From: Asterionella formosa
Lineage: Eukaryota
DNA: 44,633 bases
Assembly: GCA_002256025.1 (NCBI GenBank)
Contig: NKIB01014337.1
Location: forward strand, 1 to 44,633
Direction of reading: 5' to 3'
Below, piece by piece: positions 4,391-44,633 of the stretch. A program made the position numbers and the translations under genes. Below the pieces are notes generated by a model, which saw nothing but the letters and a program-made list of their open reading frames with translations, searched no databases and had not been told where the DNA came from. The number at the start of each line of letters is the position of its first letter. Position 1 is the first letter of the stretch.

Positions 4391-5060
4391 AATCAATCAG
4401 TTTTTTAACGTGTGCTGGCTGAGTAAAACGTTTGATCTAATGGAAAATCTATTCACAGATGTATTCATATGTACTAGTTATCGACTGGATCAGTAATCAT
4501 AAACAAAAGAGTCATTTTGAAAATGTCAATGGACTATTAATTGATATTACTTAAATAGAGAGTCAAAAATTTTTGCTTTGGCCTACAGATTACCGTAGTG
4601 TAGAGTGTTGCATACTGTGAAAGTGCCAAATCTGTTTGTATCACCATTGTTCTAAATTGCGCATCTATAAATGACATGAAAAATTGCGCCTTTGGCAACT
4701 TCCCCTTTTGTTGTAAATATTAGTGTTATTAAAATAATTCTTTTACGATTGTTTTGTCTATGTCATTTTCTTACATGTATCAGTCAGCAAATTCTAGTTG
4801 TTTTCAGCGGGTTCTGAATGTAGAAAGAGATGATTCCTATTTGTATTCCAAAGCTACATCTAAGCCGTGTATTACTACATGAAGTGACCATCACGTAAAT
4901 TAGCCTAGTTGATTTTGAATTGATCACATGAATTGGTTGAATACATCAAAATGCTTACTTGAATACATCTATTATTATCTGAATACATCACATTAATTAT
5001 TTGATCAGAGTATCATGCATGCATTCCTGATCATCACTATATTACGTGATCACCTTCACA

Positions 5061-5153
5061 TAATTATTTGAAATACTTCACGTAATTATTTGAAATACTT
5101 CACGTAATTATTTGAAATACTTCACATAATTATTTGAAATACTTCACTTAATT
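5061..5153. repeat. 22-bp tandem repeat TAATTATTTGAAATACTTCACG x4
   Basis: Units at 5061, 5083, 5105 and 5127, with degenerate TTCACGTAAT copies on both sides. Confidence 0.95.
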
Positions 5154-8047: not shown

Positions 8048-8235
8048 AAATTTGATTTTGTACTGCTGCAGTAGGGGGTCAATGATTCATCATCTCTGTC
8101 TTGACCATGATGAACTGACCAGACTCATTATCTCCACGAATATTGACATTGAATCATTCCTATTTTGCACATATATCTAGCCTAACATGGACAAGATAAT
8201 TGTTCAATTTTTTCTTTGCTATCAACAACAAAAGC
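8048..8235 (+). pseudogene. Fragment of TE accessory 'ORF-A' (copy 1 of 3)
   Basis: Nucleotide similarity to 22806-23150 and to the reverse complement of 39140-39395; translates as YCCSRGSMIHHLCLDHDE...TNIDIESFLF. Confidence 0.7.
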
Positions 8236-8509: not shown

Positions 8510-9150
8510 CCATTTTTGGACTCCCAAAAACAATATCAATTTGGAATCGAAGGTACTAGCTAGGTTGAAAAAATCTAGGATGATTTGAGTTAGGGTAAAC
8601 AGCATTCCACCAATGTACATGTCGTCAATATTATACAGAACATACAATTAATAAGGTGGAATGGAATATTTGGAAAGGTAAAAGTTCTATGTAATGAACT
8701 TTTCACAGGCATGTCGTTGCCATTGGAGCTGCCGACAATGTAAGTAAAACAATATTCTATATGTGTTATGAAGTAAAAAATGATTGAATGATCAGGAACA
8801 GACCATGATCATTACTTGCTTAGCTATCTGTTTGAAAGTTTGGACAAAAGATCCAGGATCTAACTGATCTGAAATAAGTGGAGTTGAATTCATTGTTAAT
8901 CGATTTCTAGTTTTATAAGCTCACAATAAATAAGGAAGCAAAACGTTGCTGTCTACATTTGACTTGTCTAAAAAGAAAGACTATATCATACAGTGTGTAC
9001 AAACGTCTACTGCTACTGGTGTAAGGAATTTCACACTAGGTACTGTATTTATACCGTCAAGTTACTGTAACTGATACCATGTTTTGACATATCGGTACCA
9101 ACAACTGTCATTCTTCGCAACCCGGAAATGATACATGATAAGAACGACTT

Positions 9151-9322
9151 TGAAGACACGACTGAGGGTGGCGGCTGCCTGCGAGTATTCCTGTGTTCGA
9201 GGATTGGGAGGCGCGAGTAGGTTTACCTAACGAGCGGCGGCGGTTCTCGGGCCACCCAGCCTCGAACACATGTACCGGTATACTCGCAGGCATGAGACCA
9301 CCTCGGGCGTGTATTGCCTTCA
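9151..9322 (+). ncRNA. Long GC-rich hairpin; candidate structured RNA or APC1 5' UTR element
   Basis: Nested helices 9156-9171/9298-9312, 9176-9188/9280-9292 (13 bp perfect), 9192-9202/9260-9270 (11 bp perfect) and 9204-9217/9246-9259, including U-G wobble pairs on the + strand. Confidence 0.5.
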
Positions 9323-9384
9323 GCACGACCATCAAGAGGAAAAGCATACCAACCTCAACTCTTATTTCAGACTTGGACAACACC

Positions 9385-12300
9385 ATGACCTCTCAATCAG
9401 CTCCCTTACAATGTATTCCCCTTTTCGAGTACAGCAAGTCAGAGTACACCGACGAAAATGTACTGCAGCGCTTGTTCACTGCTTCGACAAATCCTGATGT
9501 GAAATCTGTGGACGCTGAAATCGAGACTTTACTAGTGAAAGGTCCTGCTGGGGCGAGACACGTCGTAATAAAAGGATCAAATACTGTTCATCTCTCCCTA
9601 CAGTTGATGAATAGTGATTTCGCTGACAAACTGGACCATGTGCGAGATTCATTGCTGTGCTGGACTTCGTTCGCGTCTCAACCAGATATCAAGCTTCTTT
9701 GTGTACTAACCACCCCCACTTTGGTATGTATCTTTGATATTTATGGGCAAGATTCCATTGCTGGTGGCGAAGGGCATCATATTTTCCTTCCTTGTGAGGC
9801 TAGATCCATCTTCTCCCTTCCAACTGGAGGATTTCTGATTCAGAGAAAAGGAACTCCCGAAGATACTATTGCTGACGAGGAGTTCATGTTGCAAGACCAT
9901 CCCACACTGGAAAGTGCCCCGATTACTTCACTTTTTTCCGTAGAAGATGCACTGGATCCTGCTTTGCCGGTCACGATCAGTGAAAATCATTGTGTTGACG
10001 TTATGGAAAAAATCCTTTGGGTCGGCGAAGCTCGTTGGCTTTCAAGCAATGTAATTGAGACTATATGCGTGAGCTACCATGCCCAATTGGAACGACATGC
10101 ATTATGGTCCATCCAATCTGCTCCTACCCCACCTTCTACTCGGCCTCTTTGGGAGTTGTCGGCAAATAGTCGGGTTGAAGTGGTGACTGATACAGCGCTT
10201 CTAGAAGATAGGGAAGATCCAATGTATTCGCCACACGTGACGAGAAATGAAGCACTTGCAGACGCGCTTGGAGTGGCCAGACGAAGTCGACCAGTTTTGT
10301 CCCAGGAAGGAATAGATATTCCATCAAATCCGTTGCATCCATCAATGTGTTTGCACCTTATTTACGAAACACCAAGGAAGCAATCAGAAGCAGAAAAAAC
10401 CTTTTTGGTGACCTCACTTGATGGAAACTTACCTATTTTGTGCATGTTTGGAAATGACGAACTCCACCTATATACACTGGGCATTTCAGAGCGCTCGGCT
10501 GTGTTTGTCAGTGGTATCACTTTTCTCCCATGTCTCTCTGCTGAACCCATTAATTCATTTCCACTCCCAACTGGCAAACTCGCAACTGATATTCTTGTGG
10601 TGACAATGGATAGACAACTAGAGCTGTTTTTTGGAAACTTGTCCGTTGCATCTTGCTCTTTGTTTCAAAAACAGAGAATAATATCTGTGGAACGCTCCGT
10701 TGGTAATCGAGCAGACGGCGTCGATGAACATGGTAACGCACTTCGATTCAGTCTATTGGGTCACTTCGACTCAAACACACTTTCAGAGAAAGTTTTGGTT
10801 GCGATTGAGACGGCGTTCTCGTCTGTTGGACAACTCGAAATCGCTCGTAGAATACGAGTAGATTGTCTGCGAATCGCGACAAAGCTGAATCTTTCAGATG
10901 ATGCTGGATGGGAAGTGGTTTCAAGAATTCTTGCACTTCTTTCTGCAACGAATATGACTACACAAGCAGTTGCCTCTTCATTTGAATTTTATGTGCCACA
11001 TGCTAATGATGAACAGTCGTTATGGGAACGAGTGAGGAACTCAGACTTTCATGCAAACTATAGCAGGCACTATGAGGTCCTGGTCTCTGCCAATGACGAC
11101 GATACACTGACATCAAGGGTGTGCACCTTTGATTTGGATCTTTCTATTTTTAAGCTGGCAAAGGTCTCAAAGGTCTCAAAAACAATAAATCCATCGATCG
11201 GAAAACTCATCTTCGATACCATGCATCTTCTTTACGAAGAATCTGTTCTGTACAATTCTTTGAAATGGCAAAGAAGCATTGGAGAATTTCTCATTTCATT
11301 TTGTCTCGTAGTACATGATAAAGCGACTATGTCTCAGTTTTTAAATCACTATTACGACGATTTGGGTCCAAGTTTTTCAAGTGCTGTCCGGCCAAATCCC
11401 TTTTTTCCTCCAGAAGAAGTGATTTTCCGAACGGACATGACTACATTTACTGAGCCTCCTTGTTTATGTTCCTCGATTGAGCAGCTTATCAAACATGGGT
11501 TGAGTGGGTTGCACCTTGATCCTTTCTTCTGCGAAAAGCCGGCCGACATTCTCGTGAGCGACGCTTTCGAAAAGTTTCGGGTCGTGCGAGGAGCGTTTTC
11601 TGCTCTTTTCAACAGATCTGTAGATTACAATAAACGCGTGACGCAGACTGTGAAGGTGCTTGTCCAGGAAGGTTTCCGCGATTTCCGTTCCTTGGTTGAC
11701 CACTTCCCTGTTTGGATTTCATTGCCGCTTGTTGAAGCCTTGTTTTATTGTAGACGCGTTCCGGACGTTTTGATTCAATCAAGTGGTTCTTCGCAACTAC
11801 CAGTATGGCGTTTGATAGGTCGAGAAGATGTGAAGCAGCAAGTTAGCACTGGGAAAATGGAAAATAAAGGCAACAGCGCTTCTACTTGTCAATGTTCAAT
11901 CAATCAAGCGATTGACGAGGATCATGATGGAATCGAAGCAATAGAGCATGAGTTTCAAATGTTGTTTCCTCACGACAATCGCCTACATGAAGTAGGAAAA
12001 CTACTTCGATCCTCTCGACCAACGTTGCTGAAAATTCATCGGGCCATCGAAGTCTCAGACCATGAATTTGAGCGAATGAAACAAGAAAGGCTTTTAATCC
12101 TTTGTCGCAGAGTTCAGGCGTTGCCACTTGGACGGGGAATGTTCACCCTTGGAACTTTGGAACCAATCCCATCAGAGCCACTCCAAGTACCGAAGCTGTG
12201 TCTTTCCGGAAAGGTACCTCCAAATAATGCAACGTTGGTCCTCGACACAGAAGTCCTCACTTGCCCAAAGAATATGACAGTTTGGCCCGAATTTCATAAT

Positions 12301-13154
12301 GGAGTTGCAGCAGGTTTGCGACTACCCCTTGCATGGAATGATGGCGTTGGGAAAGCGCCACTGATCAGCAGGGCCTGGGTCGTGTCAAACCGCGATGCAG
12401 CCAGGTATACTCAGCCACAAAGAACTCAATCGAACAGTCAATCCAGCAACGAAGGCAGAGAAGCAGATAAACAGCCGATACATGCTCACGGGGGGCTGTT
12501 AATGGCACTTGGTCTTCGGGGGCACCTGTCTGCTCTCTCTATGACAGACATCTATGAGTATCTTACACAAGGCTCCGTGACCACTTCCGTTGGAATTTTA
12601 CTAGGCATGGCAGCAACAAAACGAGGTTCTTGCGATCCGGCTGTATCTAAAATGCTTTGTCTCCATATTCCGTCGCTTCTTCCTGCGTCATTTGCATCAA
12701 TTGACGTATCAGGTCCTGCCCATACTGCTGCCGTCACTGGTATCGGGTTACTCTATCAAGGATCGGCACACCGTTTAATGACTGAGTTCCTTCTCAACGA
12801 GATGGGAAGACGTCCAAGCCATGATGCAAATACTTCGGACCGAGAAGCTTACGCGTTGTCATGTGGACTTGCCCTTGGAATGGTCAATCTAGCTCGTGAT
12901 GATGCCAACGAGACTCTTGGTGGGGGAAATGCCGGGCTGGCCGATCTTGACATTGAGTTGCGATTAGCCCGATATGTCTTGGGAGGAATAAATGTCATAG
13001 GCGAGAAGCACCGACATGATGCCTTTGACGGGAATATTCCATTTAGCAATGACGGAGAAAGAAGTTCTCGGATTCACGAAGGGGACACTATCAACAACGA
13101 TGTAACGGCACCGGGAGCAACCCTTGCATTGGGCTTAATGTATTTGAAGAGCGG
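9385..13154 (+). CDS. APC1: Anaphase-promoting complex subunit 1, exon 1
   Basis: APC1 motifs FPHDNRLHEVGKLLRSS, ALPLGRGMFT, WPEFHNGVAAGL, HGGLLMALGLRGHL, REAYALSCGLALG and TAPGATLALGLMYLKSG. Likely ATG at 9385 (CACCATGA); alternative ATG at 9292. Confidence 0.95.
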
Positions 13155-13217
13155 GTAAGGTCGTGATTTACTCATTTTGTTCAATTTACCGTTGTCCTAA
13201 TCTTTTTTCTTTTTCAG
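13155..13217 (+). other. 63-nt GT-AG intron of APC1
   Basis: GTAAG donor, CTAAT branch site, pyrimidine tract and CAG. Splicing restores KSG-NNAVASSLALPDTHFLLEYVRPDFL. Confidence 0.95.
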
Positions 13218-14673
13218 GAATAATGCAGTTGCATCCAGCCTCGCCCTTCCAGACACTCATTTTCTTTTGGAGTATGTTCGCCCTGACTTTTTGATGTTGA
13301 GGGTCATAGCCCGATCAATGATATTATGGGATGAGGTTGAACCAACTATTGAATGGATAAACCAGCAGATTCCATCTGCGATCAGAGAATCCTTTAAGCA
13401 ACTGAACGAGGTTGCGTTAAAGGAAAGTGGGATTGTCGCCGTTGGACCAGACACTGACATGGCTGATGAAAGGACAAGGTCTGACCATGTAGTATTTCTA
13501 GAGCCAGACATTGACAAGAATGCTGTTCGGCAAATCCATGCTTTTGTCACAGCCGGAGCCTGTTTTGGGATTGGGCTTCGATTTGCTGGAACTGGACATC
13601 AGGCTGCAGCAAATGCAATTATTGACGTTATTTTGGCTTTCACTGCTCTTCGTGATGGAAGAAACCCTGCAACAATTGCGCTTCGGCCTGAGCTCTCTAT
13701 TTTAGAGATGTGCCTTGGCCTCTGTGCAATATCAGTGTCTCTTGTGATGGCAGGAACTGGCGATCTTGACACCTTTCGGCACCTGAAAATCCTTCGATGG
13801 AAGTGTAATGAAGATGTCAAGTATGGTAACCACATGAGTTACAATGCTTCAATCGGATTGCTCTTCCTTGGTGGAGGGAAACAGACAGTGGGTCAATGCA
13901 ATGGCGACATAGCTGCTCTCGTTGTAGCATTCTTTCCACGCTTCCCTGCAAAGACATCAGATAATCATTATCATTTACAAGCACTTCGACACTTTTATGC
14001 TTTGGCAGCCAAAGAAAAAATCATACAAACAATTGATATTGATACTGGACGTAGCGTTTCTGTACCTATTTTGGTTCAATACAGGGATTCGACGGCCTTG
14101 AAAAGTATGGACACTCCCTGCCTACTCCTTAACTCCAACGAAACAGTTTCACAAATCCGTGTTATGTCAAATTACTACTATTCTTCACATATTGATTTCG
14201 ACAATGAGACGAGACGAGGAACAACGATATTTGTGAAGAAGCAATTTGAGGGGTTCGTCCCGAGAAACCCAACAGTACAATTTTCTTCTGTGCTTGTTCA
14301 AAATTTTGTGAGGGAGGAGTCAAATAAGTTTGGTTCTCATTCTATTATTAAGTGGTTTCGTCAACACCTTGGGGATGATCAGGCGTTAGCACATGAGACC
14401 ACTGAGAAAATTATGGTTTATGCCGAGCTGATACGTTGCCTGCAGTCAAATTCATTATCACCAAGAGCACTATGGGGCTTTCGGCTCGTCAAAGCATATT
14501 ATGCAAGCAACAATCAAAGTGACAGTTTGATAAATCATCATGAATTTGCCAGATTGATTGAGAAACTTGAAGGAAAACTGAAGGAAACACAGAAGATCGA
14601 ACTCTTGAGTCTTTCTGCTTGGTTTGAATCAGGGAACAAAGTGTATTGCTGTGATCCAGCAGTTGAGTTGTAG
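13218..14673 (+). CDS. APC1: Anaphase-promoting complex subunit 1, exon 2 (spliced protein ~1741 aa)
   Basis: Motifs EYVRPDFLMLR, GACFGIGLRFAGT, VMAGTGDL, YGNHM...IGLLFLGGG and DNHYHLQALRHFY. Confidence 0.95.
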
Positions 14674-22720: not shown

Positions 22721-22805
22721 TTAATATATATTTTTCACTGGTACCTAGTACTTATATATATAGCAGTATATTATACATGCTTGAAAAAAATACTGCCAGC
22801 AAATA

Positions 22806-23150
22806 AATTTGATTTTGTATTGTTGTAGTACGGGGTTGATGATTCAACATCTCTGTCTTGACCATGAAAGACTTATTGGACTGAATATCTCATTTTTGTA
22901 CTGCTGGAGAAGGGGGTTGAAGATTCAACATCTCTGTCTTGAGCATAAAGAACTTATTGGACTGAATTTTAACGAAAAGAGACAATGAACCATTCCTATC
23001 TCGTATGTATATCTCGCCTAACATAGAAAAGAAGGTATTCGTACAATAATAACTTATTTGCATTAACATCGACAACAAAAAATTGAAACCGCTGCCTTCT
23101 AGAAGTTTTCTTGGTTGCCATTTGTTCAATTTTGAAGACATAAGCAAAGT
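22806..23150 (+). pseudogene. Fragment of TE accessory 'ORF-A' (copy 2) with internal ~80-bp tandem duplication
   Basis: GATTCAACATCTCTGTCTTGA...ACTTATTGGACTGAAT occurs twice; homologous to 8048-8235 and 39140-39395. Confidence 0.7.
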
Positions 23151-27375: not shown

Positions 27376-27430
27376 CTCCTCTGTAATACCAAGCAAGTTG
27401 CGGAATAGGAATCCGACCTTTCTACATTTA

Positions 27431-27642
27431 GATCTTGCTGACAATGACTAGAATTGGGTGACAACAACTAGATTTTGCTGACTACAACTAGAACTTGCTG
27501 ACAATGACTACGATATGCTGACAGCAACTAGAATTCGCTGACAATTACTAGAACTTGCTTGCTGACTACCACAAAAATTTGCGGACTACACGAAGAATTT
27601 TTGGACTACAACTAGGATTTGCAGACAGCCACTAAATTTGCG
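27431..27642. repeat. 20-bp tandem array (GAAYTTGCTGACAAYRACTA), ~10 degenerate units
   Basis: Exact 20-bp phase from 27431 to 27550, decaying afterwards; no unique spacers. Confidence 0.92.
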
Positions 27643-27941
27643 AATAAGAATAGATTTTCTGAATGACCATTATGTCTATCAATTATAAACATGAACAAAC
27701 ACAACCACTACCCCCTGATTGCCTCACCAATACTACATATAAGCATGCTGGTATGAAACATAATATCAAGTTCCAAAAAACCACATTTGTTGGTACTACA
27801 TTGATGACTTCACAAGTTGCTGGTACAATCAATCAATTCTCAGTTTGCTGATGAATAAACTTTTTCAAATCTTTTAGCTTTAACTAGTCATGTTATTGTT
27901 ATAGTCGTCATAGTATTTGTTGCAGAGCTACTTCAAAAGTT

Positions 27942-28852
27942 TCAGTTAAAATAGCGGACATAATATTTAGGTCCACAAATGACGATATCGTAATCAATTC
28001 TAATTGCGTCACACTTGATATCAAACGTCATTGTGAGAAATGCAGCTTCTCCATTTTGGCTTTTCTCAATGAGCCTATAAATCGTCTTATTGAAATTGAT
28101 TGAGTGTACCGATGATTGTAGAGTGGAGCAAAATGAGAGATCCCCTTTGGAATGATCCTCTAACATTTTTGGCTGGTCATGAATAAAGTTTGCCGTTAAA
28201 GGCTTCCTGTGGTCAAAGAATGGTTTATCACCACTATTGATGCACTCTGAATTGCTGTTGTGTGCCGTGAAACCACCACGAAGTAGATTGAAACTGTTCA
28301 ATTCAATTCTTTTCAGCCATGCAATTGAAACTTTCTTCTCCTTGTATGTGTCGATCCACTTAAAAATCATCAAATCGCGAAGGATTGGAAATGGAATTAG
28401 ATGTATCCAGGGACTTCTCTTATACGCCTCAAAGTCTTCACTTATTCTCCTCTTGTTTTTGTCGTATTTCTTGAACTTTCCTCTGTGTTTTTTTACCCAG
28501 GCATTCCAGGCATGATAAGAGCACATACCAAATGTAAATTCGGCATTTGACTTAACTTTCTTGACAGCCCTGCGACAAGCTAAAGTATAATCAGTAATTT
28601 TCTGAATGATGAAGGAATGCGGGTTCGGTTCCCAGTACCAAGGATTGTTGTCAAGGGGAAGAGTAAAATGGTCAGTGCATGCTGAATTGTTGCCTGCAGG
28701 TGACAATGGCAGGAAGGACAAATTACTGGGCTCAACCCCTTTTTCCCAGAAGAAGAAATACTATCATCTGACAAACTATCTCCTAAACTCTGCAAGACGC
28801 TTTCATCCTCCTCAGAGGATTAATTGTGAGATGAAAGGGAAGAACTAGACAT
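27942..28852 (-). pseudogene. MULE/Mutator transposase-derived gene (C-terminal catalytic half)
   Basis: ITDYTLACRRAVKKVKSNAEFTFGMCSYH (second D plus CxxH signature) and GFTAHNSNSECIN (catalytic E). Compared with the 39645 copy, it has a TAA at codon 11 and a 1-nt deletion near 28742. Confidence 0.72.
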
Positions 28853-29547
28853 TTCGTATTTGTGGACTCTTTACAAAAAGGACATTGGCAAATAAAAACT
28901 ATCATATTCCCATGATGCATCATAGGATTGTGATCATCTGATCATGATTTTCCGTTATATCATCTAATAATTTTGATAAATCCCCTTGTAATTTAAATAG
29001 TAACCCTTTTGACTACATATATTTAATTTTTATATCTATTGTTTCTATTAGATTCCTGTATTCGAATTTCTTGGTAGGATAATGTACCAGCTGAAGTAAT
29101 GTAATTTGGCTCGTCATTTCCATCCGTCATCACTCTAATTTTTGCAACAACAACGTAATACTAGCAATGACAAGTGGAATGATTATTTACGATGACATCT
29201 TCAATTGTTGGTCAAGTGATCATTATATCTTTGATTAATTGTCATGTGCAGTGAACCTTTGTTCATAATCATTCAATTAAGAATGGTTCCGCATGCAGCG
29301 CAAATAGTAAATCCGTTTTGTCGACCACCAGCATGACAATCTCGCAAATCAAATTGTAAACAAACACATTCTACTTGTTCTTGTTGACATTTTCAATTCT
29401 CACATGATACTACATCTGCTATTGACATTCAGCATAGAAGGAGGTACGAAAATTTAACAGACTGCTATCCACATAGTTATAGTTATAGAATGATTCTGAT
29501 TACAATTTCTCTTTTCATATCGCTTGTTTCCGCATTTCGCATACTGC

Positions 29548-30073: not shown

Positions 30074-30846
30074 GTAGTACTAAATTACAGCAGTGACTTA
30101 GCTACTAAAGTGCGTGTTATACTGTAATATCATACTCCGTAGTACAATGCAGAATACAGTTCCCAATCAACATTGAATGATTGATAAGATAATAATGTGA
30201 TATCACGATAAGGTTACTTCAATGCATACATCACCAAAATATGAAATGTAATATTGAATGACGTTTATCACATAGCTATGATACATTGATCATAGAACTA
30301 TGATGATTTCTTAAAATGTTTATGATGTATTTTTAACCAAAATATGATTATGTGAAGAAAATACAATGATAACAAAATAAGATAAAATATGTACGCAAGT
30401 ATTATCAATACATCATAGAAAATCAATCAATCAATTATAAAGTATATTACATAATATATATATTCAACTTTAAATGTTTACAGTAAAAGCCAAAAGTTAA
30501 TATGATAGTATTATGTTGTGAATAGGATCTAATTATACAGATGCATTGATATGTACATCACCATAATATGATTTGTGATATGGATTGATGCATATCACAT
30601 ACCGGTATCCTCCACAACCAGCCATCATGTTCATCGTTGTGTCGTTTTTCCTGGTTATAGCTATATATACCGGCATATGTATTGTGTAAAAAAGCGAAGC
30701 ATCCATATTACACTGTGCTGTGTTCAACAATTACTACACTCAGTTACCATCACATCAGTTGCACCTCCACAAGCGCCGAAAAAATCTCCGCGTTTCCCTT
30801 CCACTGTTATACATCATAGTCTTCTGGCCCTTTGAAAACTTTCCAA

Positions 30847-31284
30847 ATGGCATTTCATGGATTTCATGGAAAGGATCAGTCACACAAGAAACGTGACTCA
30901 CTTCCGTTGTTTACACTACACGACTTTATGTTTTCGGAAAAGAAGATGAATAAAGTTATGAAATCAATCGAAGATTGCTTTGAATACACTCACAGATCAG
31001 ATGAATTTGAACAGATTCATAACACTCCAGAAAAAATAATGAAGTATGCCGATTCAATAGTGTCAGAGATTGAAAAGAAGGAAAGATTGCTTTCGAAAAG
31101 GAAACTCAAACAGTTGTTCTTTGCGGATGAAGACTCTAATTCCTATAGAGTCACAGTTCCATCTATGTCGAGAGGAATGAGTGTTTGTGTTCGTGATAAA
31201 ATCTTCATTTGTCGTTCAAGTCATCATATGTCTTCGATGAATCATCACCTACATTGCACAGTATGGTCGTATGCAATCCGTTAA
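30847..31284 (+). pseudogene. Unidentified coding remnant
   Basis: ~145-codon charged, helical-looking ORF downstream of an AT-rich subterminal-like block; no family recognised. Confidence 0.3.
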
Positions 31285-33796: not shown

Positions 33797-34138
33797 TTCA
33801 TGTTCCTTTTCATGCATACAATTTACTCCTGAAATGAAGGATCATCACACATGATGACGCGGAAAACGAAAGTGATAATACAGCACAATGATACTTGCGG
33901 CTTAGAAGAGAAGGGCGGAATCAATTGATGGTAACAAGTCAAGAGCAAATGCCTTTCATGTTCCTTGTCATGCATACACTTCCTGAAATGTAGGATCTCA
34001 AGCAACACATGATGCGAAAAACTGAAGTGACAATACAGCACGATGATACACCATGCAGCTAAGAATGAGTGAATATGATGGAGAAGGGCGGAATCAACAA
34101 GCTGTGCATAGCATCACGGTTTGTCAAGAGCAAATGCC
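33797..34138. repeat. Diverged ~160-180-bp tandem duplication
   Basis: TTCATGTTCCTT-TCATGCATACA...GAGAAGGGCGGAATCAA...GTCAAGAGCAAATGCC occurs twice. Confidence 0.88.
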
Positions 34139-34199
34139 AGGATGATCAATTGCTGGGATTAAAAATACGGAATGACTCATCCCCTTTCAGTGACTCAAT

Positions 34200-34730
34200 A
34201 GCTCCTCTTTTTGATTTAGTGGCTGGCCAACCATCAATGTGGACAAAAGAAATCGGTAAGTGCTATCAGCCATCTTTGGATCAATCCGCAACTGTTAGAA
34301 AAACTGACACATATGTGTTGCTTCTTTCAGGATAATGATAGACAAACAGTATTTGTAAGTTACAAACAGCAGTGTTGGAGCCCATTTATTGATCGATACT
34401 TTGCTTCTCATTCAATCTTCAACTGACACATTCTTTTACAGAAATATGCATCAGTTGTTACTTCCTCAATTTGTGGTAAGTGAAGATAGAAGCGAAATGC
34501 ATGTTGTTGTGTAAGCAAAACATGAACAGCTAACAATGAATTGTTGCTTCTCTTTTTTAGTATGGCTGATTGGAACAACGAAACCGATTCAATAGAAATA
34601 GGAAATGCATGAATGCAAACTCAGATCCGTCAGGAGTAAATGGAACAAAGCAAGCAGGGGAACAACGGCAAGGCAACCAGTACAACAACCTTCAGAATTG
34701 GATTGGGGGGAAGTGGAAGTGAAAGCTGAA
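34200..34730 (+). pseudogene. Intron-rich gene remnant with two micro-exons
   Basis: Three GTAAGT...CTRAC...YAG introns at 34256-34330, 34355-34441 and 34476-34560; no clean spliced ORF. Confidence 0.5.
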
Positions 34731-35170
34731 GCACCAATCATTGCGATGCGAGCATTGTAGAACATTCTGTAGCCACTCAACATATAGAAACATAAACCAT
34801 TCTTAAATATAGTTATAAATTTCGATCAATTTCATTGTATTTTAGTAGACAGTGATATTGATGAGAATTACAATCATGCTATGATAGATGTATGACAAAC
34901 AAAGTATACACATCATTGGTATTATAACTAAGATAGTATCATCATACTTCAAACTCGGTGAAAGTTTACTGCATGATCATAGTTATATGATACATTGATC
35001 ATATTTTTGATCGAAAAACTCTCATATATGTAAAAATCCTGTGCCACTAAGCGTACGATACCCTTGATCCTATATTCATGATAGTTTTTATTTACAGACA
35101 GTTGGAGAAAATAATTTTGCCGGAACTGTGTAGGAACTTGATCCATATCCTTTCTCCCAGTTCACTTCGA

Positions 35171-38100
35171 TTAATCACTATTCCATTTCGGATGGCATCT
35201 GAAAATAGTAGTTTGGCCGGGAACGGTACTTTCAATTTTAACATGATAATAAAAGTCAATCCTTACAATGGAAACAGGCCCAACCCCATCTTCAATACTT
35301 TTTATTCTTGCTATTTCAATTGCTGAATTCGCAATGCTCTTTACGTAGTTGTCCCCCTTCGGTAAATCAGGATGAACCAATTGAGACAAGGGTGCATCCT
35401 TACTCCGTGATACATGCCCAATCTTATTAGGGACACCTGCTATAGTCCATAGACCACTTGATGATGAAGCAGAGAATTGAACTTTAACAGGAAGGGATGG
35501 TGAATGGATCTTGGTAGGCGATATTCCCAAATTATCAGGCGACGTACTAGGCAACACCATCCTTGTATCCGGAATCATTCCTTCGAAATCAATTTCTGTT
35601 GAAATACCCTCAGTTACATTGATATGTACTTTACTGATCTTCTTATGTTTATTTTCTGTATGTAATGAATCACTTGCAAAAACAATTTTTCGTGGCAAGG
35701 AAAACTGCCTTGTTTCCTCATATGACCTTGTTAAAATGTCATGCTTTAATCGATGTAATTGGCTGTTCATTGACACGCTTACTGGGTCACGCGTTTCAAT
35801 TTGTCTTTCAAAAAAGACTCCAAATATCCACCAAAGAAATTAAGAGGAGATCCAAACTTCCTAATCAGATGAGGGTAATGTTTCATTCCATGAAATCTTG
35901 CCATTCGTAAGCCAATTTGAGATATCATTTCCCGTTGGGGACCAATCATAATCTTAGTAACTGACATAAATCTCTAAACCCTTTCCTCTAAAATATCAAT
36001 ACATGTTGATGTATACTGCGGTATGAATAAAGTGTCATTGATAGATATACATAACCATAACAGCAATGTGAAATCCTTTTCTAGGTGCATGTTCTCTGAA
36101 CCCATCATTCCACCCATTGAAAAAATGGTTAACAGACATAATCCGGGAATTTCTTGCCCTGACATTTTTGACAAAGCTGTCATCCTAGATCTGTATGACA
36201 ATTTTGTAATATCACGATCGTTTTGCCTTTCCAAATGTCTATTGATATGACATATCTAGCACTTTGTTCGAAGTATCGTTTCGAAAATACATTTCTGGTG
36301 CTGGTACAAGTGTTGGGTCTTGATTTTTGCCAGTGTAGATATTTGTGGTAACTGGTGCGTGTGTCCTTTTTGGTCTTTGCCCGTTTCTTCGGTTGCTCTT
36401 GATCAAGAAAAGCAGAGTCTGTTGTTTCAGTGCTACGTTTTTGATCAGGGATGTTCTCTGGAATATCTGGTGACTTTCTTTGTTTAAAAAACATGTCCAT
36501 TCTTCAGGGAAAGTCCGATAATTGTGCAATGATTCCAAAATGTACTTAAACATTCCAAGTAGTACTAATTGATGAAGAACCACAGATGGAGTTGCACCAA
36601 ATAATCCTTCTAAGTCACCACCAAAAAAATCATTTATTAGTGCAGGCATAATAGGATCATGCGATATAACCACATGGCACCACTCGTTTGCTGTTGCGTA
36701 TTTGCCATCAGATTGGGAGACACAATACTCAGGTGGGATACATGGTAATTTTCCATCGGGATACGCATTTTTGTCAAGAAATTTGTTTAAAAAATTTTTA
36801 ACATCTGACACTTTACGACGTTCACATCCAATATCAGGATTATCAGCATCTTCAGTTGAAACCAGGCAAAAGCGACAAACATATCGTCGATATAATCCAT
36901 TACCACCCCTGAAACCACAAACTTTGTTGTGCTCTTCTGTACCACCAATGATCATTCCAATCTGGAAATAAACTTTTGTCATACCAAGACCATGAACCCA
37001 AATATCGCATGACTTGTTTGGATCTTCGAAAGGCAACAATAGAAATCCTGTAACAGAATGGTATGACTTGAGTCTGCATAAGGACAAGTTGTCACCAGAT
37101 AACTTATTATTCATTTGTTTTTCCAGATCACTGACTTCAATGTCTGGCAAAAGAGATACCAATTGCCATCCATCAACGTTTTTCCTTCCTTCTTACATTA
37201 AGTTTAACATTTTCAACAAAAACGGATGCTCGGAATGTTTCATTTGTTTATCAATAGGTGAACCATTACTGAAACGGCTTGGGCAACAAATACACACCCT
37301 GTCTTCAACACTCCATTTTTTGATCCAGGAAAATTGTTGAACGCATTTTCAAACCAAGTCGCGGAAGTTACTTCGTGATATATGCGTTCTCCACAAGTTG
37401 TAAGTTTGGTTTGTTGGTGACATACAAAATGTTGCATGATATCGGAATCCCGTAGCAATTCTGCCATGAGCTGTACTGGTTCGAAATATTGGAGTGTCCG
37501 TGGGATGATCATGTTTGAATTGTTATCAATCTGTATTTATTTGGTCAACAGTTGAACACCAGCTTATGTTGGTGGAAATGAAGCATCCATGCGTTTCTTC
37601 AAAGTCTAGTGGGATGGAGCTTGACACCTTCCATCAAAATATTTCATTGCTTTTGCCTTGAACAGCCATTTCATTAGATGATCAAAGTAAACTGGCTGGT
37701 GGAAGTTAATTCTCGTTAAGGAATACCATGAGTTCTAATTATATTGGATGCATGTTTAGAGAATGTTTACTTGGAATTTGAAATTGAGGAGGCAGGGGCA
37801 TTTCCATTGCATTTTCAGGGAGAAAGCCGGTGTGATCCTTGAAAATCTGAATATTGCATCGTTTCTGAATTCAATCCTTGGAGATTTTTTAGTCTCAATT
37901 GTTCGTCTTGTTGTGACTGAATATTGTTATAAACTGAATCGTCGCTGTCGTCATGACATAGATGCTTGTGGCCACTTGATTCAAGGATAGGACACATAAT
38001 CTCTTTTTGTTGTCTACTCTCCCTAAATGCTGCAGCAGTTACACTGTCATTAACTTCTTTTCTTGAATGATTCGATGCACTACCGCAATACATAGTTTCA

Positions 38101-38276
38101 TTATGTATTCCAGGAACTCGATGTTCTTGCATGCAATGTCGACAGTGACCATATGCATAAAAAGCATGGTTGCTACAATTTCGATTGTGAGACTCAGATG
38201 CGGATTTGCTCTTCCAAAATTTGTAGTTACACAGATAACACCATTTCAATGTCCGCAAAGACATTGCGAATTTCAA
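35171..38276 (-). pseudogene. Plavaka-type (CMC-related) DNA transposase with multiple stops and frameshifts
   Basis: Ordered motifs RIYHEVTSATWF, KHSEHPF...W, IIGGTEEHNKVCG...CRFCLV...ADNP, GATPSVVLHQLVLLGMFKY, RQNDR...KMSGQE, FHGMKHYPHLIRKFGSPLNF...LESFLK and FRCHP. Cys/His-rich N-terminal segment at 38276-38140. Confidence 0.82.
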
Positions 38277-38329
38277 ATGATGACCAAGTCAGGATATGAA
38301 CAGGATAGAATGAAAACGAATTAATAATA

Positions 38330-39395
38330 ATAAATTTGGTATCACTCCAAACATGTTGTGCTGGACGATTCTTTTGTGAAAGTGCAGTGTAGATTTCCTT
38401 ATTATAAACGAGTAAATCATCAGTCTCCATTTATCAGTGCGATCATTTGAAACTTAACTTTCTTCCCTCACACTTTTTTTGATAAGTTGTTTCCCACCAA
38501 TGTCGACAAAATCAGTGGAATGACAATTATCCTCGTTCTCTGATATTTCATGCGTATCTGGATTGAAACCCAATTATTTTTGTTGCAATCGGAAATTTCC
38601 TTTCAGCACGACCAAGAAGCAAAACACTTCTGTACCGGCATTGATCAGCAAACCAACAAAACGTGATTGCAATTCACACTGTGCCCGAAGACTGAGTTGA
38701 AATTTTGTCACACCAGATTTGTCTCCTGTTAAAAATGGTTCTCCATGGCTTGTAAAATACAGAAAGAATACATTTTTTGCATAAAAGTGTCGGAAAATGC
38801 ATAAACCGTCAGTCAGGGGAGTTCGTGATCATTTCCGCAATGCGAAGTTTTTATTCGCGTAAAGAACAAGCAGTCTATTGTTGAATGGCTTAAAGTATGG
38901 CTGTAGTAAGCTGTCAAATGACCTAATCAAAATTCCATAGAAATATGAACCATGACAATTAGTGTGTACATGAAAGTCACTACAAAATTGACATAGAGGA
39001 ATTTGTTGCATCTTGAAAATGTTGTACCCTCTCCGAGAATACTGTCGCTCAGGTTTTCTCGTCTATTTCTACAAAAACATAGAAAACCTTATCTAGTCAA
39101 AGTTATCAAGCTAATCACCGCAAATTCAAAACTGTTTGCGTTTTTGGTCATATCTTCAAAACTGAGCAAATGACGACCAGAAACAACTTCCAGCGCCGAT
39201 TTTAACTTTTTGTTGTCAATACTAGTGCAAAAAGTTTTATTATTCAACGACAATCTCGTCTATGATAGTCTACATACACCTGCGAAATAGGAATTTCTCA
39301 TTGTCAATATTCGTGAAGATATTCAAACCCATAATTTCGTCATGGTCAAGATGGAGTTGCTGTCTCATCGACCCCATACCACAGGCAGCTGTACA
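38330..39395 (-). pseudogene. TE accessory 'ORF-A' (longest copy), directly upstream of and co-oriented with the transposase
   Basis: GSMRQQLHLDHDEIMGLNIFTNIDNEKFLF...IDNKKLK; homologous to 8048-8235 and 22806-23150. The 3' extent is approximate. Confidence 0.5.
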
Positions 39396-39644
39396 AACAC
39401 ACATGCAAGTACTGGTAGAACATAACCAGTATTATGTATGCAAGCATACCGGTATATAATATGCATCACTATATACATGTGTTGTACCAGCAGTTGGAAT
39501 TCACATGTAATCCTGTAGTAGGTCTGTCATTACTAGCTACTTGGCAATAGAAGTCCACATCATACATCATGTTGGCATTATATTTGGAATTGTCATGTGT
39601 ATCCATGAATTACTTTTTGTCAAAAGTCGCTCCACAAATACGAA

Positions 39645-40015
39645 ATGTCTAGTTCTTCCAACTCATCTCACAATTCATCCTCCTCTGAGGAGGATGATAG
39701 CATCTTGCAGAGTTCAGGAGATAGTTTGTCAGAAGATAGTGCTTTGTCTTTGGGGAAAAAAGGGGTAGATCCCATTAACTTTTCGATCCTACCATTGTCA
39801 CCTGCAGGCTACCACACTCCAGCACGCACTGACAATTTTCCTCTTCCCCTTGGCGACACTCTTTGGTGCTGGGAACCGGACTCACCAGACTTTGTCATAC
39901 AGACAATGACTGATTATACATTGGCTTGTCGCAAGGCTGTCAAGAAGATTTGGCCAAATGCCGAATTTACATTTGGTATGTGCTCTTATCATGCGGCCTG
40001 GAATGCATTTGTTTT
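39645..40015 (+). pseudogene. MULE transposase-derived gene, 3'-truncated second copy
   Basis: MTDYTLACRKAVKKIWPNAEFTFGMCSYH; collinear with 28852-28495; homology ends after WNA. Confidence 0.72.
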
Positions 40016-40029
40016 GGTATTGAATAATC

Positions 40030-40577
40030 CCCGAATTACAAAGGGACATTTACAGGAATGGAAGAATGTGCATCTAATCCTCTGTAACTCTAATGCCATC
40101 AGCTCTAAGGTATGGACGATCTTTTGATAATCACATGAGACTCCCGCCACCTCCAAAATTCCGTTTTCCCAAATCGCAAAGGAAACCTTCAACCTCCCGA
40201 ATCTTGACATCTATAGCAAAATAATTATTCAACCACACCTCGACTTTTGTTTCATTTGGTGGATTGACGAAAACACCGTCATCAAGTGCTTAAAAAGCCT
40301 CGCTTTCCAAGATAGTACCAGGCTCTTCTGTGACATTTCCCATTCCACCTTCGATTTCTTCGATATCACAGCTGCTGAAGTCATCCTCATCACCCTCTTC
40401 AAATTTAGGCTGTTTTTCGATACCAGAACTGTCAGTACTATCACTGTCGCTATGACTGTGACTGTGATTGTGACTGTCATCTTCGTCAGCCACTTCTTTG
40501 TTTTCGTCTGAGATATCTTCCATCCCAGTGGTTTTCAAACCACCGGGTTGGGATGTAAACAAGTTTCGTCTCAACAT
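40030..40577 (-). pseudogene. Acidic low-complexity protein remnant
   Basis: ORF 40290-40577 is D/E/S-rich, and the frame stays protein-like past its stop codon. Confidence 0.35.
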
Positions 40578-40991
40578 GGAGGAGCGTCTATAATTTAAGT
40601 TAACATACCCAGTATAGTTTTCTCCTCTATATCAACCCAAGAATTCCTTGCTTGGCGGTATATCAATGTGGGTACCAGTACATCGCTAGTAAAATAATTT
40701 ATTACGGTAATACGCCTGCCTTTTTTTGCTTTTTTTATGTCGCTGCATGTGTAGAAAATGCTCAGTAGTATTTCCACATAATTAAACCACAACGATCAAT
40801 CTCAATGTGGGTACCGGTATTGAAACCCGTATACGGGACATCCTTTGTGCTGTTCGAACATAACTACAGTCATGGCGGCTGATGGAGTCGCTTTGTACGA
40901 AAACAAACGTCATAGACTGGTGTCATTGTTCAAATCGTTTTTACGCACCGGTATTGCGTAAAAACGGCATGCGCTCAAATTTTCGGCTAGT

Positions 40992-41475
40992 TTGAGCTGC
41001 GTTGCGGCGAAACTTGATGTACCAAAGAATTCAATAGATGTTGTTGGCGCCAAGGCAATTGTAGAGGCTGTCAAGGTCAATGCTGAATTGACTACAGTTG
41101 GTTTCGATTTTAATTCTATTGGTCTTGATGGCGCAGAGGCCATCAACACAGGTCATCAAGGTCGATACTGTTGTGACTACACTTGATCTCAATGCCAATT
41201 CAATTGGTGATGATGATGCGAAGGCCGTTACCAACCCATCGAGGTCAATATCAACACAGGCCTTCAAGGCCGATACTGTCATGACTACACTTGATCTCAA
41301 TACCAATTCAATTGGTGATGATGGTGTGAAGGCCACTACCCCCTCATGGTCAATACTGGATTGACTGACTTCGCTTTATTTCTGAGGCAATTAAATTCAC
41401 GTCAATGCCAATTCAATTGGTGTTGATGACGCCAATTGAATTGTAGATGCTCTCAAGAAGGTCAATCCTTGCCTG
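40992..41475 (+). pseudogene. RI-like (28-aa) leucine-rich-repeat gene fragment
   Basis: About five repeats of the type TTLDLNxNSIGDDGAKAIxxAxKxN, split by frameshifts and stops. Confidence 0.85.
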
Positions 41476-41575
41476 TCTTAACATCTTGACAATGTTTTAT
41501 ACCAATTGTAGTGCAACTGGTATTGATTTACTAATTGAATAACTTACTTTTAACTAATGATTATTAAATATAAAT

Positions 41576-43456
41576 TTACCGTCCTTCTTTTCCATAAGAA
41601 TCAAGCAAAAATGAAACTAGAGATGGAGGAATACGATTCTTTCCATAGGCCTTTGTGTTAATGGCATTCCCAGCTCGTTTCCTGATCGCAACTGAGTTTT
41701 TCTCGGGAGTGGAACCAGGGGACAAGTACATATGAAGTCTCAAAGCTCCATTGGTGAGGTGATTGTCCATAGCACCTGCATGAACTGTATCATCCCGCAT
41801 TAAAAATATGTACTTGAAAGGAATGCGAAGTAACATCGCATGTTGATTCTCTGCTGCTTTCACTTTTCGATCTAAGTCAAAGTTCCAGTCGAATGACTCT
41901 CCATCCCAGAAATTTATGGAGAACCCACGAGAACAAAGGGAGATATCCAATCACCAAGGAAGGCACATGTCAACATCATTGATTACCAGCTCTGTATTCT
42001 GGTAGTCAAAATGTGGCTCTTGATGAACCGTTGACAAATTGACATTAGTGTGCAATAATGTACAGGTATGTGGTATATCTTTGCTGACATTGGTTGCGTT
42101 ACTTGCTACAAATGGGGGCTGCATAACAGAACCGGGAATGACCATTGACAACATTTTCCAAAAGTGGTTCACATTGTCATGTGAGGATGTGGGGTCCGAG
42201 ATCTTCATTTTGTCAGTGAATGGGCCATATGCAACCAAAGATATTGTCCCGCCTGTCATCTGCCTGAAGGATTCGGCAAGGATCCTCTTTGTCCGGAAAG
42301 AGGCCCTGATAAGCGACCAAGTCGCCTGATCTGTACCAACTTGACCCATAATCTGCTATTGGCCTATGTCCAGGAAAGGACAGTTTTTGATCGAAAAAAG
42401 AATACCTTATCAGGTGGAACACCAGAAATCTGGGGCATTGTATCATCTTCCATGATATAAGACACAGCTTTCATGGCTTCAGCAATTTTTTCAAGAAAGA
42501 AGCAGAGATCATCAATGCGGCGACATTTGAATGAGGGACAGGAATTGTCTTCGAAGAAATTCATAGCCGCTTCACGTTTGCGAGGTGTAATGACAAGTAC
42601 ATGCCATCCCATGTCACCTTCTTTCCGCCCTTTTTTTGATAACTGATAATGACCTGATTTTCTCCACTCTTTACAACATGATGGGAAGTAGTTAATCCAC
42701 ATCCAACACCACATTCTTGTTGGATCCGAGGTGACCTTGTGGGAAAAAGCGAAGTAACTTATGGTCCGAGTTCTCCTTATTTTTATCTAGCAACACTCCA
42801 AGTTTCCACTTCATGAAAAAAGATTAGCGTTTTCACGAAGTGGGACTGGAACAATTGAGATGTCTTTCCCAAGTCGGGTGGCAGTTAAGCTTTTCGAGAT
42901 GACCATTGTCGGTTTTTGGTAAAAAATGTTGTATGAATATGTTGTATGTGGGTGAGCAGCAACATGGAATACCACATCACTATTACTATTATGCTCGTCT
43001 GAAGCAAGTGTTGCGGCTAATGCGCGATCGCTTACTTCTGTAAACTCAAGTTGTGCAGCATTCAGACAATCACGAAAATAATCAAGAAGAATGGGCGACT
43101 CGTGATTTAGACCATGAGCAGCAAACTGTGCGGCAATCTGATCAATCTTGATCTTAATCCAGACTTCATCCTCCAAAACGGATTTGAAGTATTCAGGTAA
43201 AGGAGAAGAATTGTCCCAAGGAACGATTTTCTTGATTTCGGAAGGCTTCCGGGCATGGTCGAGAACTGATTTATTGGAGACCCTGTTGTACACATTGAAC
43301 AACGCTTTGGCCTTCGTGTAGCATACAAACTGGCCAATTTCGCCAGCATAATTAACCTTCAATACGGAAACTCGATCACTCCTCTCCAGAGAAAGGTCTT
43401 CATCTTCGTTCCAATCAGACAGCAGGGGATATATTGTGGTTGCTTCATTTGAACCC
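41576..43456 (-). pseudogene. Multi-domain protein with C-terminal 2OG-Fe(II) dioxygenase (DSBH) domain
   Basis: HQEPHFD (HxD, 42005-42013), VHAG (distal His, 41774-41785) and RLH (41732-41740). An in-frame TGA at 41951-41953 joins ORFs 41951-42349 and 41576-41950. ORFs 42364-42714 and 42811-43362 share a frame upstream. Putative intron at 43457-43512. Confidence 0.72.
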
Positions 43457-43580
43457 CTAGCTCGAGGTAGGGTTAAAAAAATAATATTGAGTCAGAGTAA
43501 TCAAACACATACTTTTCACATATAAATCAAATTGGTTAACGCTCAACGGAGCTTTCACCAATACTCTAAGCATTCAACCC

Positions 43581-43702
43581 TGTACCTGTGGTACCAGGTA
43601 GTTTCCCTAGGTACCGGTAACAGGTACCAAGTACCAGTGCCAGTGGTACCTGATACCATCAGAGTGCATATCGGCACCTTGCTGTAACTTCACGTACCGG
43701 TA
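43581..43702. repeat. GGTACC/TACCGGTA palindromic cluster
   Basis: Read directly from the sequence. Confidence 0.8.
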
Positions 43703-43990
43703 TGGGGATGATAATATACGGGAGTTTCAGAACCGAACGCATCCCCTATTAACCAGGTACTGAGTCCTGAGTATGCTCGATTTTGTGTAGATTGTGTATA
43801 GAAAACCATAGATCCTATATACCACGGAATTATGTTCAAGGAATAAAATTTACCGGTAATACACATTACTGGTACATATTAATATTGATACTCGTTGTCA
43901 CACCATGCTCAATGCATCGTTCTTGGTTTCAAAAAAGCAGTCAGAATTCATTTGACCAGTGGATATTAATGACAAATTTTTTAACACACT

Positions 43991-44080
43991 GACGGAGAAA
44001 GAACGAAAAGACCGCAAAAGAACGCGAAATTCGCATAAGTTCGCAAAAGACGTCAAAAGACCGCAAAAGAACGGGAAAAC
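43991..44080. repeat. Degenerate 10-bp tandem repeat (GACCGCAAAA-like) x~9
   Basis: Read directly from the sequence. Confidence 0.7.
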
Positions 44081-44179
44081 CCGGATCTACGACGGTACTT
44101 TGGGAAAACGTGATGCGAGGTCGATTTTAGATAAAACACCGTTTTTGTACGTGACTTTTCGTACTTTGGAGTTTCTGTC

Positions 44180-44316
44180 AACTCCCTGGTGAGAAACTGC
44201 AGAAAGGAACTTCGGTTTTTAACTATGCTAAAAACACTCGAAAATTCAGGGGAAATCTGTTTATTTGGTTTAGTAGAAAAACCGAAGTTCCTTTCTGCAG
44301 TTGCTCGCCAGAAGTT
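44180..44316. mobile_element. MITE-like foldback (~137 bp)
   Basis: Perfect 26-bp IR AACTGCAGAAAGGAACTTCGGTTTTT (44195-44220 / 44277-44302), extending imperfectly outward; no clear TSD. Confidence 0.6.
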
Positions 44317-44505
44317 ATATACTGATGCTATTTCAAAGTTACCTATGTATCTAGATTGCCTTCAGACCCAGCCAACTTTGAGCTATCATCATCCAAAAAT
44401 TCGACAAAATCGGCCTTTTCTACTGTTGCCAAATATCGGAATCAGAATTACTATTAGCCAAAACATCATCATTGGAATAGTTGTCGTGTGCCTGAATTTT
44501 TAGTC

Positions 44506-44633
44506 CTACATCTAAGACGCGAAATACGCCACTTTTCGAAATTTCGTCTACGTATGAGTGTTAATTATGTGGTACTTCACATGCATTAATGCCACTCTTC
44601 ACGTAAAAAAGATTACTTTTAACGGTTTCATGT
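44506..44633 (-). mobile_element. Terminus of a second, inverted copy of the 4854-7774 element (runs off the window)
   Basis: Reverse complement of 7647-7774 with scattered substitutions; similarity begins exactly at the TIR end CTACATCTAAG. Confidence 0.88.

Follow-up and report, generated by a model that had tools for sequence, protein, structure and literature searches.

A decayed Plavaka copy and an oxygenase-like pseudogene in a probable patchwork of repeats from Asterionella formosa

Does an oxygenase-like gene that lies beside a transposon remnant belong to that transposon? The question is raised by positions 35171–43512 of contig NKIB01014337.1 from Asterionella formosa (GenBank assembly GCA_002256025.1), whose full stretch of 44,633 nt is referred to here as the window. 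A first-pass annotation had read this region as one large Plavaka-type DNA transposon at ~35–43.5 kb, with a local transposase, a second gene (ORF-A; ORF, open reading frame) and a dioxygenase gene carried as anti-silencing cargo. The Plavaka copy at 35–38 kb is unrelated to the oxygenase-like gene, and the region is probably not a single transposon but a patchwork in which five or more unrelated, decayed repeats lie side by side in transposon-rich eukaryotic (algal) DNA. The gene appears, from a fold predicted for an intact relative, to be a dead copy from an oxygenase-fold family that is new and unannotated. The DNA of the window is eukaryotic, with a GC content of 31–50%.

In the layout proposed, a truncated Plavaka copy would be followed by repeat fragments (38762–40124), a leucine-rich-repeat (LRR) fragment, a dead oxygenase copy and ORF-A, and the Plavaka copy would end before the remaining items start. 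The features are as follows; L001 is a related metagenomic locus described below.

35099–38761, minus strand: copy, truncated and frameshifted, of a very abundant Plavaka-type (CMCT) DNA transposon; transposase-homologous part 35180–37837
38762–39500, no strand assigned: abundant repeat unrelated to the transposase; copies in the window at 8047–8208 and 22804–23148; X22 contigs begin at 38762
39511–40124, plus strand: fragment of a repeated ORF, formerly labelled ‘MULE-derived’ (Mutator-like element); paralog at 28494–28923, minus strand, tblastn identity 61–67%
40873–41435, plus strand: RNI-type LRR fragment with repeats of ~85–108 nt; LRR_6; repeat families D3 and D10
41576–42906, minus strand: pseudogene of a multi-copy, unannotated family resembling 2-oxoglutarate (2OG)/Fe(II) oxygenases, as judged by homology to intact relatives and the fold predicted for one of them, P0030
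42910–43491, minus strand: ORF-A, a separate, repeated, coding-like sequence; paralog at 3334–3740, minus strand
44506–44633, plus strand: 5′ terminus of an L001-type element, which begins CTACATCTAAG; 93% match to the reverse complement of 7647–7774

The Plavaka copy and its boundaries

A remnant of a Plavaka transposase is present on the minus strand, as had been annotated. The 317-aa ORF at 36242–37192 has three homologs of 614–1219 aa (expectation value (E) 4.6e-74 to 2.1e-64, 45–53% identity), all of which (P0002–P0004) carry the Plavaka family PF18759. Family membership of the window transposase is established through these homologs, the direct Pfam match (37240–37536) being sub-threshold (E 0.011, 15.5 bits against a cut-off of 26.3). 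By tblastn, the three proteins leave a footprint at 35180–37837 on the minus strand in six segments (frames −2, −3, −2, −1, −3 and −2; 45–66% identity each), which corresponds to residues 172–1073 of the 1219-aa P0002, without residues 1–171 and 1074–1219. The frame changes and this coverage indicate a real remnant whose reading frame is not intact, with at least five frameshifts and without both ends of the protein. The copy is thus alike in sequence to the Plavaka family, which is placed with EnSpm/CACTA in the CMCT group, but unlike it in being dead and truncated at both ends. Kojima (2025; PMC12730594) describes Plavaka transposases as having a catalytic DDE with C(2)C and H(3–4)H motifs.

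The boundaries of the copy were sought with Logan contigs from two DNA and two RNA public runs, labelled as algae or freshwater metagenomes, which were placed on 34000–44633 at 80% likeness. Repetition in the region is extreme (170,604 X1 contigs were placed), and the break points given are the best supported among the loose ends listed. On the right, 94 X1 and 2 X20 contigs match the window as far as 38753, beyond which they share a different sequence (agreement 0.9); after a 9-nt gap past 38753 a further 8 letters match the window, which puts the break at ~38761, and X22 contigs of another repeat begin at 38762. On the left, 57 X1 contigs end at 35099, and what follows varies among them (agreement 0.38). 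In one X1 contig, 35098 is linked to 38762 through 28 other letters. Other copies run past or differ at both breaks, and 35099–38761 is therefore a fragment. No inverted repeat brackets 35099–38761, and neither a terminal inverted repeat (TIR) nor a target-site duplication (TSD) can be defined for the copy. As the Plavaka family sequence leaves the window at 35099 and at ~38753–38762, the MULE-like piece, the LRR fragment and the oxygenase gene all lie outside the copy.

Contig numbers differ along the region. At single sites, where counts have a maximum of 128, 85–114 variant contigs cover the Plavaka part and 12–29 the oxygenase part. Summed X1 depth is ~1–1.7 million over 34000–38600 versus ~30–120 thousand over 39700–43200, a 10–30-fold difference that is compatible with different abundances, summed contig depth being distinct from copy number. 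The nature of this evidence counts against the patchwork: the contigs are metagenomic, they were matched at 80% likeness, their depth is distinct from copy number, and the breaks are the best-supported loose ends of those listed. In the poly(A) RNA run X22 no contigs cover 36130–37549 inside the Plavaka copy, an absence of cover that is no proof of silence.

A single element spanning the region is very improbable on these results. In its favour, the transposase, ORF-A and the oxygenase-like gene are all on the minus strand within 8.3 kb, and dioxygenase-carrying Plavaka elements are known from fungi (PMC12730594). However, the Plavaka family leaves the window on both sides of the transposase, the intervening 2.8 kb contains other repeat pieces on the opposite strand, and a search for shared termini found none. 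In addition, the local transposase is just 22–25% identical to the one that accompanies an intact oxygenase gene at L001, and Pfam scans found no DNA- or chromatin-binding domain in the oxygenase family. Thus the proposal of one large Plavaka element with a local dioxygenase cargo fails at 35099 and ~38753–38762, and its own caveat, that the adjacency could reflect nesting and no more, is to be preferred given these breaks.

The pieces between the Plavaka copy and the oxygenase gene are of several kinds. Within the first, an in-window repeat at 39092–39456, which is not among the genes named in the first-pass annotation, matches 8047–8208 and 22804–23148. The next had been called MULE-derived, a label based on motif resemblance that is not supported, as no MULE/Mutator model matches it at a Pfam E of ≤10. 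No Pfam family matches 39609–40124 or 39511–39765 at that threshold, and for the 272-aa paralog the sole match is the unrelated DUF3425 (E 0.11, 13 bits against a cut-off of 27.1). A search of the ESM Atlas with the MULE-like ORF gave a best score of 0.76 and no usable lead. Three of the genes had also been said to have paralogous fragments in the window; this is so for two of the five named items, the MULE-like piece and ORF-A, and neither the oxygenase gene nor the Plavaka transposase has an in-window paralog.

The LRR fragment, also annotated previously, is real. LRR_6 (PF13516) is above its gathering score at 41092–41364, with two repeats (E 5.9e-8, 32.6 bits against 23.4), and a second match at 40962–41186 is sub-threshold (E 0.027). 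The adjacency of LRR sequence to the oxygenase 3′ end is found in at least one further copy, since P0024 joins 41773–41621 to 41348–40959 and 40938–40873. In poly(A) run X22 the highest summed contig depth of the stretch, 7262, falls on the LRR fragment at 41100–41454; this depth probably comes from expressed relatives of the LRR gene and not from this fragment. Elsewhere in the region the Pfam scan, which covered 11 stop-to-stop ORFs within 35–43.5 kb, gave an insignificant match to DUF530 (E 0.19) and no match for ORF-A, and no Rfam families were found in 34000–44633.

The oxygenase-like pseudogene and the predicted fold of its family

Homology of the window gene to the intact ORFs of two related loci, L001 and L002, extends from 42908 to 41551 at 68–69% DNA identity, with the probable start at a Met at 42906. 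A minus-strand dioxygenase-like gene with an HxD…H…R triad had been annotated, and its motifs are in place: HFD at 42005–42013, VHAG at 41774–41785 and RLH at 41732–41740. The frame is broken, however. Compared with the intact L001 ORF there are in-frame stops at 42811–42813, 42787–42789 and 41951–41953 (TGA), the last of which occupies a column with G, S or A in relatives, and there is a frameshift at ~42364–42400. Additionally, a D replaces the nearly invariant family G in the R-G-D-x-x-H motif. The ratio of non-synonymous to synonymous substitution rates (dN/dS) between the window copy and L001 is 0.193/0.819 = 0.24 over 252 codons, and that between L001 and L002 is 0.40, on 17 differences. 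Judging from codon substitutions, purifying selection acted on the gene before the window copy died, and this copy would have no present-day function.

Neither half of the window gene matches a Pfam family at E ≤10, and its sequence has no match in the PDB. An AlphaFold model of the pseudogene, with X at the stop, was too poor for use, with a predicted local distance difference test score (pLDDT) of 42. Poly(A) RNA-library contigs match parts of the gene at 86–94% likeness. A variant without 102 nt (42023–42126) is present in DNA contigs (X3) and in RNA-library contigs (X20, X22), and represents a deletion among copies, not an intron.

An exhaustive phmmer search of 1.84 billion representative proteins returned 46 relatives at E ≤1e-3, 24 at ≤1e-10 and 5 at ≤1e-30. 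Most are fragments of 53–180 aa with 50–89% identity; about a dozen are full-length relatives of 301–669 aa (most 380–550) with 20–38% identity. One protein of 1565 aa (P0037, E 4e-7) was left out of all alignments as an apparent chance-matching repeat protein. Conserved columns include Q, the D of HxD, PW, G, W, P, R-x-D-x-x-H-x-G and G-A-x-R-x-H. In the alignment of 15 full-length relatives the D, distal H, R and H columns are invariant. The distal H follows the HxD after ~75 residues, and the R lies 14 residues past the distal H.

The fold was predicted for P0030, an intact 404-aa relative, by AlphaFold with a 45-sequence alignment (pLDDT 69.6, predicted template modelling score 0.71). The resulting model has the double-stranded β-helix fold. 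Foldseek matched it to 72 PDB chains at E ≤1e-3, led by FtmOx1 (3.4e-5) and PHYHD1 (3.6e-5) and followed by AviO1, SnoN, PHD2 and P4H. A structural search independent of Foldseek placed GA2ox3 first (Z 9.8, root-mean-square deviation 4.4, 213 residues aligned), with AviO1 at 9.5, EvdO2 at 9.1 and 34 chains at Z ≥8. In a repeat of the structural search all 50 of the matches listed were 2OG/Fe(II) oxygenases, and 315 of 1000 chains had Z ≥8. The fold is thus like that of the PhyH/FtmOx1/AsqJ-type enzymes (PHYHD1, 2opw; FtmOx1, 7wsb; AviO1, 4xaa), and GA2ox3 (6ku3) and PHD2 are fold neighbours as close as that group; across this whole set the matches have Foldseek E 3.4e-5 to 1.2e-4 and Z 9.5–9.8. 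NgTET1 (5cg8), in rank 21, has a Z of 8.6; the top score (9.8) and many others differ from it by no more than about 1 Z. As a lead only, the ESM Atlas puts P0030 nearest to a cluster in which 51% of members are PhyH (score 0.95, 163 shared features).

On this model the family would be a divergent 2OG/Fe(II)-oxygenase fold, nearest to the PhyH/FtmOx1 and prolyl-hydroxylase groups and not demonstrably TET/JBP. Several results pull in the other direction. Among the 45 aligned relatives no dioxygenase Pfam family (PhyH PF05721, 2OG-FeII_Oxy, Tet_JBP or others) is matched at E ≤1, and a PDB sequence search for the window gene and the family gave no match, the profile of alignment A1 returning only an irrelevant hit at E 0.6. 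TM-scores are 0.28–0.47, and Z-scores of 9–10 exceed the stated background of 7–8 modestly. The P0041/P0076 cluster has Y in place of the first H, and P0030, for which the fold was modelled, is ~23–25% identical to the window copy. More generally, of the 18 longer relatives 17 lack a Pfam match at E ≤0.01, and sequence identity to the matched oxygenase structures is 8–16%. RxS is the usual motif in PhyH/FtmOx1-type oxygenases; the motif here is RxH.

The description of the gene as a dioxygenase therefore stands at the level of fold, for the intact relative P0030, and not as a match to a sequence family. Likewise, ‘more PhyH-like than TET/JBP’ is reasonable by fold, although no Pfam dioxygenase model matches. 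The ancestral protein may have been an active Fe(II)/2OG hydroxylase. Because of the fold neighbours, a small molecule or a protein is slightly favoured over a DNA base as its putative substrate. As a family of ~300–670 aa without a Pfam entry, it is left blank by automatic annotation. Neither viral contigs, scanned with the oxygenase alignment and with the L001 transposase, nor prokaryote genomes, scanned by pattern, gave any match; with few short patterns, both searches are weak evidence of absence.

Linkage of the family to Plavaka transposases

A metagenome scan with the family alignment yielded nine related loci, each of which was searched by tblastn with three P0002-type transposases and the L001 transposase. 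A transposase lies beside the oxygenase relative at one of the nine, L001 alone. This 8552-bp locus contains an intact 1006-aa Plavaka transposase ORF at 412–3432 (PF18759, E 1.2e-10, 41.6 bits against 26.3) and, beginning 292 bp farther downstream on that strand, an intact oxygenase ORF of 488 aa (3724–5190) with 67% identity to the window gene across 283 residues. The L001 transposase belongs to another lineage than the Plavaka copy of the window. The linkage of oxygenase homologs to Plavaka that had been suggested is thus borne out in the L001 pairing, but not at the other eight loci.

These data raise the possibility, doubtful at present, that the oxygenase is the cargo of a different Plavaka lineage, the L001 type, whose elements would be laid out as 5′ terminus, 1006-aa transposase, ORF-A remnant, oxygenase and possibly further ORFs. 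The window copy might in that case represent part of such an element, decayed, rearranged and deprived of its transposase, although this too is a tentative suggestion. The tight spacing and common strand of the two intact genes at L001 agree with it, as does the gene being multi-copy and often pseudogenised, like transposon genes. No reverse-complement copy of the terminal 11-mer is found in L001 at ≤2 mismatches, other than one chance-level site inside the transposase ORF, so nothing suggests that an element ends between the transposase and oxygenase genes. However, L001 contains neither terminus, so that enclosure of both genes by TIRs in a single element is putative. L001 also has an 82-nt direct repeat (99%), in which 5145–5226, at the 3′ end of the oxygenase gene, recurs at the contig end (8471–8552). 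The recurrence reflects either a second, incomplete copy or a loop in the assembly, which makes the order of the ORFs farther downstream (204, 194 and 261 aa, with no Pfam family) uncertain.

ORF-A bears on the same point. It exists as annotated, with an open frame of 226 aa at 42814–43491 and the paralog at 3334–3740, and it has 23 short homologs of 42–87% identity, none with a Pfam family. Its core at 43217–43396 has 94% DNA identity to L001 3534–3710, which lies between the two L001 genes, so that L001 and the window share an ORF-A piece upstream of the oxygenase gene. Apart from this piece, which amounts to 180 bp, the homology that the window has with L001 and L002 is limited to the gene itself. 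ORF-A occurs twice at ~1.0–1.1 kb from an L001-type terminus (3.7/4.85 kb and 43.5/44.5 kb); a meaningful link was rejected and the spacing taken as coincidence, because the intervening DNA is not homologous.

L001-type termini are found in the window at 4854, 7774 and 44506, which would also fit an L001-type cargo. L001 22–247 matches window 7663–7445 at 82%, the repeat runs on to 7774, and both terminal copies lose similarity at the same base, the start of CTACATCTAAG. The terminal 11-mer, which is found again at 4854 on the plus strand, has four matches in the window at ≤1 mismatch, versus 0.73 expected; a copy with one mismatch lies at 27733–27743. Between 4854 and 7774 is a 2921-bp non-autonomous DNA transposon with CMCT-like features, with imperfect inverted repeats of ~14–22 nt, termini that begin CTACATCTAAGCCG and a flanking 3-bp duplication, AAG. 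The right subterminal 330 nt of this element have an 82% match in the sequence upstream of the Plavaka transposase of L001, and 22-nt subterminal tandem repeats are present at 5012–5231.

At the oxygenase gene of the window itself the case for cargo is not made. The 44506 terminus faces right, towards the outside of the window and away from the oxygenase 1.6 kb to its left, and no L001-type transposase lies upstream of the gene (43500–44633). The gene is thus outside both the Plavaka copy and the 44506 terminus. Two results nevertheless weigh against a patchwork of unrelated pieces: a Plavaka transposase and an oxygenase gene are neighbours at L001, and an L001-type terminus lies 1.6 kb from the oxygenase of the window. 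For this reason the verdict of no relation covers the 35–38 kb copy, and not necessarily Plavaka elements in general.

The other related loci point in more than one direction. L002 has 97.9% identity to L001 over a stretch that starts 23 bp before the start codon and runs to the end of L002, yet farther upstream it diverges into a different repeat, with a 91% match to window 30671–31161, which speaks against a shared element. This repeat (L002 1–497) abuts the L002 oxygenase, and P0005 joins an oxygenase fragment to 30720–30779; it seems to land repeatedly in or beside oxygenase copies. L003 follows L001 downstream of the oxygenase gene. Relative to L001 it has a 724-bp gap at L001 5699–6422 with GT..AG-like ends and an ambiguous junction, either an intron or a deletion. 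No transposase was found by tblastn at the distant relatives L005–L008. Of these, L006, a 34.9-kb contig, carries an intact 498-aa distant relative at 8903–10396, with genes for a protein kinase, an AAA_16 ATPase, pyruvate kinase and an M3 peptidase among its neighbours (10 kb on each side). This neighbourhood indicates that the oxygenase family includes ordinary cellular genes, and it is a further point against cargo.

Such a locus would be expected if the oxygenase were an ordinary host multigene family, segmentally duplicated in repeat-rich DNA with coincidental transposon neighbours, which is possible but unlikely. Near-identical clusters of 404-, 484–488- and 553-aa proteins, as in normal genes, are in keeping with a host family, as are the dN/dS of 0.24, the end of homology between subfamilies at gene borders and the poly(A) contigs over parts of the gene. 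The oxygenase–LRR adjacency repeated in P0024 is what a duplicated segment would give. Less easily accommodated are the many fragmentary, stop-ridden copies in several samples, the intact L001 transposase tightly upstream in the same orientation, and the other repeats that recur at varying points in or beside copies (P0005, L002). These recurring repeats suggest that the copies lie in mobile DNA. Spread of the family in the alga may have occurred by riding a transposon or by segmental duplication.

A precedent for transposon carriage comes from fungi. PMC12730594 reports TET/JBP genes in 11 lineages of DNA transposons from fungi, PlavakaB among them, with PlavakaB elements of this kind in Agaricus bisporus and Gymnopus confluens (Iyer et al., as cited there). 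The termini given there for fungal elements are CATCA..TGATG (2–3 bp TSD) or TGT..ACA (2 bp TSD), and TSDs of the CMCT group are 2–5 bp. L001 likewise pairs a Plavaka transposase with a same-strand gene of predicted 2OG-oxygenase fold from a multi-copy family. However, the fungal systems reported there carry TET/JBP, whereas the oxygenase here is not recognisable as TET/JBP and the host is an alga; the termini here, CTACATCTAAG with a 3-bp TSD, are also unlike the published CATCA or TGT types. A further difference is that the neighbouring Plavaka copy of the window is unrelated to the oxygenase gene, and enclosure of both genes by TIR and TSD would be putative. A literature search for links of Plavaka or CACTA-type DNA transposons to dioxygenases, diatoms included, found fungal work only.

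It is thus conceivable, though on present evidence improbable, that an algal Plavaka-lineage transposon (termini CTACATCTAAGCCG, 3-bp target duplication) carries a previously unrecognised PhyH-like Fe(II)/2OG oxygenase as its second gene. Capture of the family by a transposon is plausible in a tentative sense, with the single contig L001 as its basis. If true, Plavaka would have its first dioxygenase-carrying element from outside the fungi, and the first whose enzyme is not a TET; this would suggest recruitment of oxidative enzymes by DNA transposons on more than one occasion, possibly against host silencing. Were the L001 pair one mobile element, the fungal link between transposons and dioxygenases would extend to other eukaryotes and to another enzyme class, and the substrate of the enzyme would become a question of transposon–host conflict. 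The window alone holds ordinary transposon debris and one dead gene; what is worth keeping is the unannotated oxygenase-fold family itself and the L001 contig, which sets an intact family member directly behind an intact Plavaka transposase.

Other features of the window

Outside the region discussed above, tandem arrays of 20–21-nt units, of a type seen subterminally in DNA transposons, are present at 27414–27634 and 1065–1148. On the plus strand at 9166–14670, two long ORFs of 1330 and 490 aa have weak APC1 and PC_rep matches. This is probably a host gene for anaphase-promoting-complex subunit 1, the sole clear cellular gene noticed in the window.

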